The translations under genes were made by a program, and so were the position numbers. A model generated the notes under the pieces. The model made no database searches and was not told the origin of the DNA. It saw only the letters and a program-made list of their open reading frames with translations. This document shows, piece after piece, positions 45,748 to 47,375 of a stretch of DNA of 64,000 nucleotides. The DNA lies in the NCBI GenBank assembly GCA_963699155.1, contig OY969414.1:267757-331756 (forward strand). The letters run 5' to 3'. The stretch comes from an uncultured Chlamydiales bacterium (GTDB lineage Bacteria > Chlamydiota > Chlamydiia > Chlamydiales > JAAKFR01). How positions within the stretch are numbered: the first letter of the stretch is position 1; each line of letters starts with the position of its first letter.

Positions 45748-46379
45748 ACCTCTTCACCTTGATCGAAAAAGAGGAGATCCATCCCGCTCCCCAAACAAAA
45801 ATCATTCCTGCTGACCAATTTTCCAAATTGATCGATGCTAGCGCTCTTCTCAACAAAACATACGAAGAGGAGGCTGCCTACCGTATCCAAGTGGGTAAGG
45901 AGTGCGAAACCTTAAAAGAGAGCTCCCAAGCAGCCGGCTTCGAGGCAGGGTTGAAAAAATGGAGCGAACAGATCGCTCTTCTCGAACAGGAGATCGTTAA
46001 AGTCCGTAAAGAGATGGAAAGCGCAATCGTTCCTCTAGCGCTCACAGCGGTGAAAAAGATCATTGGCAAAGAGCTGGACGCCAAGCCTGAGATTATCGTC
46101 GATATTGTCGCTACAGCGCTGAAAACAGTTTCTCACCATCGTAAAATTGTGATCTATGCCACTCCTTCAGATGTGGAACATTTGGAAGCGCAGAAACCCC
46201 ATTTGAAATCCCTCTTTGAACATCTCGAAACACTCTCTATCTCAGCTAGGGGTGACATTCATCCGGGTAGTTGTGTGATAGAAACGGAAGCGGGCATTAT
46301 CGATGCCCAGCTGGAAACACAACTCCAAGCCTTGGAAGCTGCTTTCCTCAATTTTTTTGAAAGTCGAAAGAAAGGATGA
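45744..46379 (+). CDS. sctL: T3SS stator CdsL/SctL
   Basis: KIIPADQFSKLIDA, ALTAVKKIIGKEL, PGSCVIETEAGIIDAQL. Confidence 0.92.
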   Translation: MNLFTLIEKEEIHPAPQTKIIPADQFSKLIDASALLNKTYEEEAAYRIQVGKECETLKESSQAAGFEAGLKKWSEQIALLEQEIVKVRKEMESAIVPLALTAVKKIIGKELDAKPEIIVDIVATALKTVSHHRKIVIYATPSDVEHLEAQKPHLKSLFEHLETLSISARGDIHPGSCVIETEAGIIDAQLETQLQALEAAFLNFFESRKKG

Positions 46380-46382
46380 CAT

Positions 46383-46552
46383 ATGCGGATTGTGTCCCGA
46401 CTTTTCTGTAAATTTGGGCTAGCTGCGGCGGGCATCTTGCGCGCTTTTTTCGTCGCAAATAGTACACGACTATTTGCTTCCTCAAAAATCACGCAATCTG
46501 GCACCGCCTCGCTTACCCCAAATTTACAGAAAAATCGGAACACAATCCGTAT
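46383..46552. mobile_element. RPE-like palindromic element at the sctR start codon
   Basis: 36-bp TIRs (46383-46418 / 46517-46552, 3 mismatches); central hairpin GCAAATAGT-ACACG-ACTATTTGC at 46455-46477. Confidence 0.85.
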
Positions 46553-47375
46553 GCGGCTCCTCTTTCTCGCGATCGCTCTCTTCGCCGCTCTTTGGATAAC
46601 CCTTCCCGTAGAGGCACAGCAAACGGGTCAAGATCTCCTCAATCAGATCGTAAAACAACAGGGCAAACCTTCCGCCCCAAATGCCCCTCAGGGCGATGTA
46701 GGGCAAGGTTACCCCGATCTTGTCTCGCAAGCCGCTCTCTTGATCTTTTTGGCTCTTCTGCCCTTTTTGATCATGCTCTTCACCTCCTTCATCAAGATTA
46801 CGATCACCCTGGCCCTGCTCAGAAGCGCTCTCGGCGTCCAGCAAACGCCTCCTAACCAGGTCATCAACGGCATTGCCCTGATCTTGACGATGTATGTGAT
46901 GTACCCAACTGGCCTGGAAATGTACCATCGGGCAGAACCTATCTTAAAAGGAGGGCTTCCTAATACTCTTATCTCCGCACCCTCAGCCCGTGTCGCCATC
47001 GAGATCATCAACGTCGCTAAAGAGCCCCTCCGCCAGTTTTTGGTCCGCAACACACGCAAACAAGACATACAAGGATTCTATAAAATTGCCCAAAAAACCT
47101 TTCCAGAAGAGGTCAAGGGATTGTTGGGAGATACCGATTTCCTCGTCGTGGCCCCCGCCTTTATCACCACTCAAATTCGAGCAGCCTTTGAAATCGGCGT
47201 TCTCATTTATCTACCCTTCTTCGTCATCGATCTTGTGACATCTAACATTTTGTTGGCCATGCAGATGATGATGCTCTCGCCTCTTTCTATTTCGTTGCCG
47301 CTCAAATTGCTGCTGGTTGTGATGATCGATGGATGGACGGTGCTTGTACAGGGACTGGTATTGAGCTTTAATTAG
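46383..47375 (+). CDS. sctR: T3SS export apparatus SctR (ancestral start probably 46551; element-derived in-frame extension upstream)
   Basis: TSFIKITITLALLRSALGVQQTPPNQV, AFEIGVLIYLPFFVIDL, MMMLSP.SISLPLKLLL..MIDGW. Confidence 0.95.
   Translation: MRIVSRLFCKFGLAAAGILRAFFVANSTRLFASSKITQSGTASLTPNLQKNRNTIRMRLLFLAIALFAALWITLPVEAQQTGQDLLNQIVKQQGKPSAPNAPQGDVGQGYPDLVSQAALLIFLALLPFLIMLFTSFIKITITLALLRSALGVQQTPPNQVINGIALILTMYVMYPTGLEMYHRAEPILKGGLPNTLISAPSARVAIEIINVAKEPLRQFLVRNTRKQDIQGFYKIAQKTFPEEVKGLLGDTDFLVVAPAFITTQIRAAFEIGVLIYLPFFVIDLVTSNILLAMQMMMLSPLSISLPLKLLLVVMIDGWTVLVQGLVLSFN

Follow-up and report, generated by a model that had tools for sequence, protein, structure and literature searches.

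A palindromic miniature transposable element inserted in frame at the sctR start codon of an uncultured environmental chlamydia

We analysed a stretch of 64,000 nucleotides (the window) from an uncultured environmental chlamydia (contig OY969414.1 of assembly GCA_963699155.1, positions 267,757 to 331,756), in which a palindromic transposable element of the miniature inverted-repeat type (MITE) lies on the start codon of the core type III secretion gene sctR. The host genome (G000) is closed and has a size of 2.40 Mb and a GC content of 47.5%. SctR nucleates the export gate of the type III system, a structure that chlamydiae probably require for life inside cells, and the genes of essential membrane machines are where a tolerated transposon is least expected. 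The element occupies positions 46388–46547 of the + strand (160 bp, GATTG...CAATC), carries no transposase, and has an 8-bp target-site duplication at its borders. In this duplication, the left copy, CATATGCG (46380–46387, + strand), includes an ATG at 46383–46385, and the right copy, CGTATGCG (46548–46555, + strand), includes a second ATG at 46551–46553; the two copies are identical at 7 of 8 positions. The element and one copy of the duplication add up to 168 bp (160 + 8). The hexamer ATGCGG stands at 46383 and recurs at 46551, exactly 168 nt or 56 codons apart in a single open frame, as a preliminary description of the window had reported. The extended sctR open reading frame (ORF) runs from 46383 to 47375 on the + strand (330 aa) and is open throughout, and its first 56 codons (46383–46550) consist of the left duplication copy and the element. 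The native-length sctR (46551–47375, + strand, 274 aa) aligns from residue 1–3 with those relatives whose start adjoins the sctL stop. For annotation, the 330-aa and 274-aa calls are both defensible.

The stop codon TGA of sctL, the gene immediately upstream, is located at 46377–46379. A Shine-Dalgarno (SD) sequence, AAAGGA (46371–46376, + strand), abuts this stop codon and is separated by 6 nt from the ATG that follows at 46383; the closest relative, G002 of the same genus, has the identical motif at the equivalent place, cgaaaggaaggaTGAggtGTG. The preliminary description had placed this SD before an ATG belonging to the element. The position of the SD was correct, whereas the ATG belongs to the left copy of the target duplication, and therefore both the native SD and the native distance of 3 nt from the sctL stop have been retained. 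No SD precedes the downstream ATG at 46551, which is paired at the foot of the stem; the preliminary description had likewise put this ATG in the right arm of the stem, with a weak SD only.

The inverted-repeat arms, 46383–46431 and 46504–46552, are 49 nt long and 84% complementary. The terminal inverted repeat (TIR) that is conserved in all copies of the family is approximately 31 nt (46388–46418 and 46517–46547), so that the inverted repeat described earlier is present while its given length of 36 bp was approximate. The predicted central hairpin was found at 46456–46476, and the stem of the element has approximately 60 pairs. The minimum folding energy of the 206-nt stretch around the element was −95.9 kcal/mol compared with −48.3±3.9 kcal/mol for dinucleotide shuffles (z = −12.3), and none of 200 shuffles was as stable. 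The 56-residue extension contains nine lysine and arginine residues and no aspartate or glutamate, with an isoelectric point of 12. An Rfam search over 45500–47500 (E≤1), a Pfam search with the peptide of the element frame, and an exact-protein look-up of the 330-aa form each gave no match. A terminator or promoter role was considered and rejected: the single weak terminator-like motif (46428–46440, with a T-run) stands alone, and the counts of such motifs were near those of shuffles. The two TIRs of the sctR copy differ at 2 of 31 positions and its duplication has one divergent position among 8, so that the insertion is not a very recent one; the ORF has nonetheless remained clean.

We compared the sctL-sctR junction with those of 29 relatives at the nucleotide level. 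In 28 of them the start of sctR falls between −4 and +44 nt relative to the sctL stop, most often in an ATGA overlap or at a distance of 0–7 nt, and all nine metagenome contigs that hold both genes have the same empty junction with the same range of spacing. The junction of G002 reads cgaaaggaaggaTGAggtGTGaagccgcttttt (core cgaaaggaaggaTGAggtGTGaagccg). When the element is taken out of the window together with one copy of the duplication, the junction reads cgaaagaaaggaTGAcatATGCGGctcctctttctc (flank join cgaaagaaaggaTGAcatATGCGGctcctc), the layout of which is as in G002. Because the junction is empty in the relatives and in the metagenome loci, the N-terminal extension of sctR is not ancestral. 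This comparison, together with the search for further copies described below, went against both outcomes by which the preliminary description would have been refuted, an ancestral extension and the lack of other genomic copies. We regard the insertion of a mobile element into the sctR start codon as practically certain. The metagenome scan contained no SctR closer than 79%. A survey of the junction across the phylum covered 150 of 389 matches and followed up those with long open frames; out-of-frame insertions are under-counted in it.

The identity of the gene is given by its domain and its neighbors. The Pfam FliP domain (PF00813) was found at residues 119–325 of the 330-aa ORF with E = 1.7e-61 and spans model positions 1–191 of 191. 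In a structure comparison, FliP and SpaP matched the 330-aa ORF with E values down to 3.6e-43, and these matches began only at residue 99–118 or so. The ORF is an SctR/FliP export-gate subunit, with a full-length FliP domain in an sctL-R-S-T operon. The type III secretion block spans 43970–48483 of the window. It begins with sctJ (43970–44920; from the ORF list and Pfam), followed by an ORF of 276 aa (44917–45747) that has no Pfam match and could, judged by its position, encode an SctK/CdsK-like pod protein. The next gene, sctL (45744–46379, + strand, 211 aa), encodes the stator protein of the FliH/SctL family (Pfam FliH PF02108, E = 5.6e-20). Downstream of sctR lie the export-gate genes sctS (47381–47662, + strand) and sctT (47653–48483, + strand), and the pair gave Pfam Bac_export_3 and Bac_export_1 matches. 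The genes sctJ, sctL, sctR, sctS, and sctT are undamaged, and each of the five has a full-length Pfam match; SctR is 81% identical to its ortholog in G002 with no stop codons.

A BLAST search of the stretch against the whole genome gave three further full copies with 87–91% identity and one remnant consisting of TIRs only. The second copy (genome positions 563599–563758; L002:1501–1660) lies within an msrA-msrB fusion gene (msrAB), nine codons from its 3′ end, where it swaps the tail …EGYG-PYMHLLGYIHGDK for …EGYG-DCLPVFL; the tails in relatives are …EGYGDYLPLLRSF, …EGYGDYLKDL, and …EGYGDLTYLLT. The third copy (1856924–1857084; L003) lies between convergent genes. The stop codons of these two genes overlapped within the 8-bp target CTATTTAG, and each gene came to have a separate stop when the target was duplicated. 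The fourth copy (1964401–1964565) is intergenic and its duplication is degenerate. The remnant (1608203–1608264; L005:1479–1540), which has two left-type TIR ends and one right end, sits between tRNA-Ala(TGC) and tRNA-Ile(GAT), an interval that is the usual spacer of rRNA operons. These positions place all surviving copies at gene boundaries, where the damage is limited by the duplication or by the open frame. The duplications differ between copies; in the window genome they include GCTATGGC and CTATTTAG, each with 8 of 8 positions identical. The preliminary description had suggested a search for other in-frame copies in ORFs; in this family only two of the four full copies touch ORFs, one in frame at sctR and the other by replacing the msrAB tail. 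Frame +2, the frame used at sctR, is open in all four copies, and one frame of the opposite strand is also open in the sctR copy and the msrAB copy, compared with 8.6% of shuffles in which a given frame is open.

Related copies were found in two other genera of the same family. One of these genomes, G016, has a single copy with 82% identity, the duplication of which is identical at 6 of 8 positions. The other, G044, has a duplication with 7 of 8 identical positions, a solo TIR, and a head-to-tail tandem of 1.7 copies (L092:1501–1779, G044:C3) with a period of 168, which corresponds to the element plus the duplication AACTTCCT. The tandem suggests an insertion beside an existing copy or an unequal exchange between copies. 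A scan of 185,579 species genomes for the core motif found one other chlamydial metagenome-assembled genome (MAG), which resembles G016, and three Firmicutes matches that look like chance. A fuzzy search for the TIRs in the whole genome and in 29 family genomes, directed at a parent insertion sequence (IS), gave only MITE copies and remnants. A parent IS is often missing for bacterial MITEs, and this feature is not strictly defining. These results indicate that the 160-bp family is a low-copy, lineage-restricted MITE.

The arms of the stem show covariation, with double changes in 13 of 62 stem pairs among five copies. We did not accept this as proof of function, since template-switch correction of quasi-palindromes, an established mutational mechanism, or shared descent gives the same pattern. 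The hairpin energy of the sctR copy (−75.5 kcal/mol) falls inside the range of the other copies (−74 to −84 kcal/mol), and selection to weaken the hairpin at sctR was also rejected.

The only filled junction among the 29 relatives was that of G023, an 82%-complete MAG of a different genus. Its element (L028:2323–2493, − strand; G023:C27:5897–6067) also lies on the sctR start codon and is unrelated in sequence to the 160-bp element. It is a MITE of 163 bp with the ends CCTAGAAACGG…CCGTTTCTAGG and, together with a 5-bp duplication, ATGAT, accounts for 168 bp, so that two ATGs lie 168 nt apart in an open frame. The sctL stop and sctR start of G023 formerly overlapped as ATGA, and G019, of the same genus, keeps the empty ATGA overlap. 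The extension reads MILKTAVRDGKVMQDFELESLKTVDAHSQMVKGATVLSDSGSKDCVNLPSPTAVFR, then MIRWLLIFVSVFAPLTSAFAQ, and the filled site folds at −111.7 kcal/mol. As at sctR in the window, an SD is present only upstream of the left ATG. An unrelated element on the same codon in another genus amounts to a natural replicate of the insertion in the window.

The 163-bp family makes 5-bp AT-rich duplications and has at least 10 copies in G023 and none in G019, G016, or the window genome. Its +2 frame is open in seven of eight copies. One copy lies in frame inside the gene of a GT4 glycosyltransferase (L059:1352–2614, G023:C43), the ortholog of which in G019 is contiguous and lacks the 56 aa, and another lies in frame inside an unnamed ORF (L056, G023:C92). 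The peptide of the family recurs at least 25 times in G002, where one copy is located inside an open frame of 3474 codons (G002:C1:2213868–2214047) and another exactly on the msrAB stop codon (L101, G002:C1; duplication TTTAA). The msrAB gene end has thereby been struck by two MITE families in two species of one genus, the 160-bp family in the window genome and the 163-bp family in G002. The behavior of the 163-bp family resembles, in the strict sense, that of the Rickettsia palindromic elements (RPEs), and the RPE-like in-frame insertion that had been proposed for sctR (168 bp, in frame, and open) is joined by a second MITE family that lies in frame inside several ORFs of related genomes.

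A third element was found near the same junction in G154, which belongs to another chlamydial family. In the spacer between sctL and sctR, a MITE of 258 bp (L072:880–1137, G154:C1:2078079–2078336) stops 29 nt short of the sctR ATG and has no frame link back to sctL. This 258-bp family has at least 25 full copies in G154 and many deletion derivatives of approximately 180 bp. In G274, of the same genus as G154, sctR is no longer beside sctL, and another palindromic repeat lies upstream of sctR.

By mechanism, the element at sctR is a classical MITE in its size, TIRs, target duplication, further copies, and empty sites. Like other bacterial MITEs (Delihas 2008/2011, PMC3184786; Coxiella QMITE1/2, PMC5896051), it is shorter than 300 bp, has TIRs and a duplication, lacks a transposase, occurs in multiple copies with filled as well as empty sites among relatives, and gives a long RNA stem-loop. 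As with the Coxiella QMITEs (PMC5896051), copies overlap gene ends, and the msrAB copy rewrites a C-terminal tail. Unlike classical MITEs, it has no parent IS in the 29 family genomes and a low copy number. The summaries of Ogata et al. 2000 given in PMC10969869 and PMC3184786 present RPEs as palindromes that lie inside protein genes as translational fusions. In the features that these summaries give, the sctR element is similar: a palindromic repeat of approximately 100–170 bp with a long hairpin, in an obligate intracellular host, with an open frame, and probably tolerated in genes. It differs from RPEs in its clear TIRs, its 8-bp duplication, and its number of only 4–5 copies per genome; in addition, the insertion at sctR lies on the start codon and produces an N-terminal extension rather than an internal one, and the host phylum differs. 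The likeness is one of behavior only, and a sequence relationship to RPE-1 to RPE-10 is neither claimed nor expected. With the 163-bp family, the 160-bp family shares the host family, a total insert of 168 bp or 56 codons, a single open frame on each strand, a copy on an sctR start codon, and a strike at the msrAB end; the two differ in sequence, in the 5-bp AT-rich duplication of the 163-bp type, and in the much higher copy number of the latter.

We found no paper in the literature on in-frame palindromic elements in Chlamydiae, nor a description of a start-codon duplication in which a MITE created tandem in-frame ATGs. Together with the in-frame copies in related genomes, the insertion carries the RPE phenomenon beyond Rickettsia into environmental chlamydiae. 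Particular to the present case are the duplication of the start codon by the target duplication, the location of the insert in front of the signal-peptide-like leader of a core export-gate gene, and an independent second occurrence that involves an unrelated element. The locus provides a testable system for ribosomes that meet a hairpin of approximately −96 kcal/mol on a start site, for the tolerance of signal peptides to N-terminal cargo, and for the persistence of MITEs in gene-dense genomes.

We then considered how sctR is translated. The computed cost of opening a 30S-sized window was approximately 29 kcal/mol at either ATG, compared with approximately 13 kcal/mol in the reconstructed empty site, and de novo initiation would therefore be poor at both ATGs. 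Once a ribosome stands at the sctL stop, its footprint takes in the upstream ATG, whereas the downstream window still costs approximately 15 kcal/mol. Judged by the junction spacing, sctL and sctR are tightly coupled in all relatives. Re-initiation at 46383 would be the simplest route to SctR, because the footprint covers the upstream ATG and the downstream ATG is costly and has no SD.

The native N-terminus of SctR has the layout of a signal peptide. The leader MRLLFLAIALFAALWITLPVEA, followed by QQ (46551–46616, + strand), shares this layout with the relatives, nearly all of which have a short basic n-region, a hydrophobic core, and a small-x-small motif followed by Q (A-x-A/Q type). The leader of Salmonella FliP (residues 1–21) is cleaved between A21 and Q22 (PMC12403130), and the SctR leader has the same layout and the same junction between A and Q. 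By this analogy, the SctR leader may also be cleaved, and an N-terminal addition could then be removed because the two leaders share their layout and junction. The case differs from Salmonella FliP in that 56 residues would precede the SctR leader and that cleavage of chlamydial SctR is putative.

The MITE was inserted into the 8-bp target CATATGCG containing the sctR start codon, and repair of the staggered cut duplicated this target, leaving the ATG twice, 168 nt apart, with the element open in frame between them. The gene would have been rescued by the target duplication, because the duplication copies the start codon. We propose that ribosomes finishing sctL would melt the base of the hairpin and, as at the coupled junction of the relatives, re-initiate at the left ATG at 46383, to which both the coupling and the energetics point, and read-through of the element would yield a pre-SctR of 330 aa. 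The 56 residues ahead of the leader, a strongly basic segment, would stay cytoplasmic and leave with the leader, or be harmless if retained, and the mature export-gate subunit would be unchanged. The element would be selfish DNA that is kept since the configuration is nearly neutral, and not a regulator. The whole chain, from re-initiation at 46383 through read-through and removal with the leader to tolerated selfish DNA, seems to us somewhat likelier to hold than to fail on the basis of the sequence, and sctR is probably still functional.

Several observations weigh against this proposal. The n-regions of SctR leaders are no longer than 10 aa in approximately 38 relatives; a pre-leader of 56 aa is far outside this natural range and might impair targeting. 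Residues 7–25 of the extension are borderline hydrophobic (KD19 1.77) and could disturb the topology. The genome encodes RNase III (PF14622, 120 bits), which could cut the stem of approximately 60 bp and free the downstream ATG. Both MITE families have inserts of 168 bp and a single open frame on each strand as family traits, and the in-frame openness at sctR is therefore weak proof of selection; it would arise by chance in roughly 1/3 of events. We accordingly downgraded this openness, which had been considered as strong evidence of selection, to a family property. The double in-frame coincidence in the window genome and G023 is suggestive but weak, and a second hit at one junction among approximately 40 related genomes with tens of MITE copies each is unsurprising. 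Finally, the G154 locus suggests that sctR can apparently be expressed with no frame linkage to sctL.

Some of these observations lend themselves to another explanation, in which the downstream ATG at 46551 would be the sole functional start and the element an untranslated or abortively translated intercistronic spacer. Cleavage by RNase III would leave a 3′ fragment whose A-rich unstructured leader (…CCCCAAAUUUACAGAAAAAUCGGAACACAAUCCGUAUG) could serve 30S subunits for initiation in the absence of an SD. For Coxiella QMITE2, it has been proposed that RNase III processes the MITE hairpins in mRNAs (PMC5896051), and both the enzyme and a long stem are present here. SctR would keep its native form, in line with the short n-regions of all relatives, and the unlinked MITE in the G154 spacer points the same way. 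However, the ATG at 46551 has no SD and is stem-paired, with a window that costs approximately 29 kcal/mol to open, and any ribosome starting at 46383 passes through it in frame. The explanation has no need for the start-codon insertions of the window genome and G023 to be both in frame and open, and cleavage would also create a 5′ fragment without a stop codon. We consider initiation at 46551 alone possible but rather unlikely. That the insertion inactivated or crippled sctR in a decaying secretion system is barely credible. Both ATGs are buried in a structure of about −96 kcal/mol, as this idea would have it, but the intact neighboring genes, the close similarity of SctR to its G002 ortholog, and a clean ORF in an insertion that is not brand new speak against it. 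Chlamydiae are, moreover, generally held to depend on type III secretion.

The preliminary description had also offered the hairpin as a translational switch. In such a model the hairpin would have been co-opted as a coupling-dependent gate or a thermosensor, so that SctR is made only if SctL is translated or in a set ratio to it, and its recurrence on the same codon in two genera would reflect positive selection. Since de novo initiation is strongly disfavored at both ATGs, sctR should indeed depend fully on sctL translation, and two unrelated MITEs do lie on the same codon in two genera, with a third in the same spacer of G154. On the other hand, the same hairpin occurs at unrelated sites (the msrAB 3′ end, a convergent junction, an intergenic position, and the rRNA spacer), it is neither stronger nor weaker at sctR than elsewhere, and 28 of the 29 relatives do without it. 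One extra hit at this junction is not very improbable given tens of MITE copies per genome and approximately 40 genomes inspected, and the covariation in the stem can be explained by template-switch correction. Nothing specifically supports a regulatory switch, which we consider improbable; the energetics and the conserved sctL-sctR coupling favor translation from the upstream ATG. A broader version, in which the sctL-sctR junction is a selected landing pad where captured palindromes gate translation by coupling, which would make nucleation of the export gate dependent on synthesis of the stator, or supply a removable pro-peptide that delays SctR assembly, appears highly doubtful. If true, it would mean that selfish hairpin DNA has been domesticated to control the assembly of the type III secretion system.

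The five 8-bp targets of the 160-bp family (CATATGCG, GCTATGGC, CTATTTAG, GTGTAGAC, and AACTTCCT) are pseudo-palindromic, and their first and last bases are complementary in five of five. Such targets would fit a dimeric DDE transposase, and IS256-like families would be compatible with a duplication of 8 bp and element ends that start with GA.

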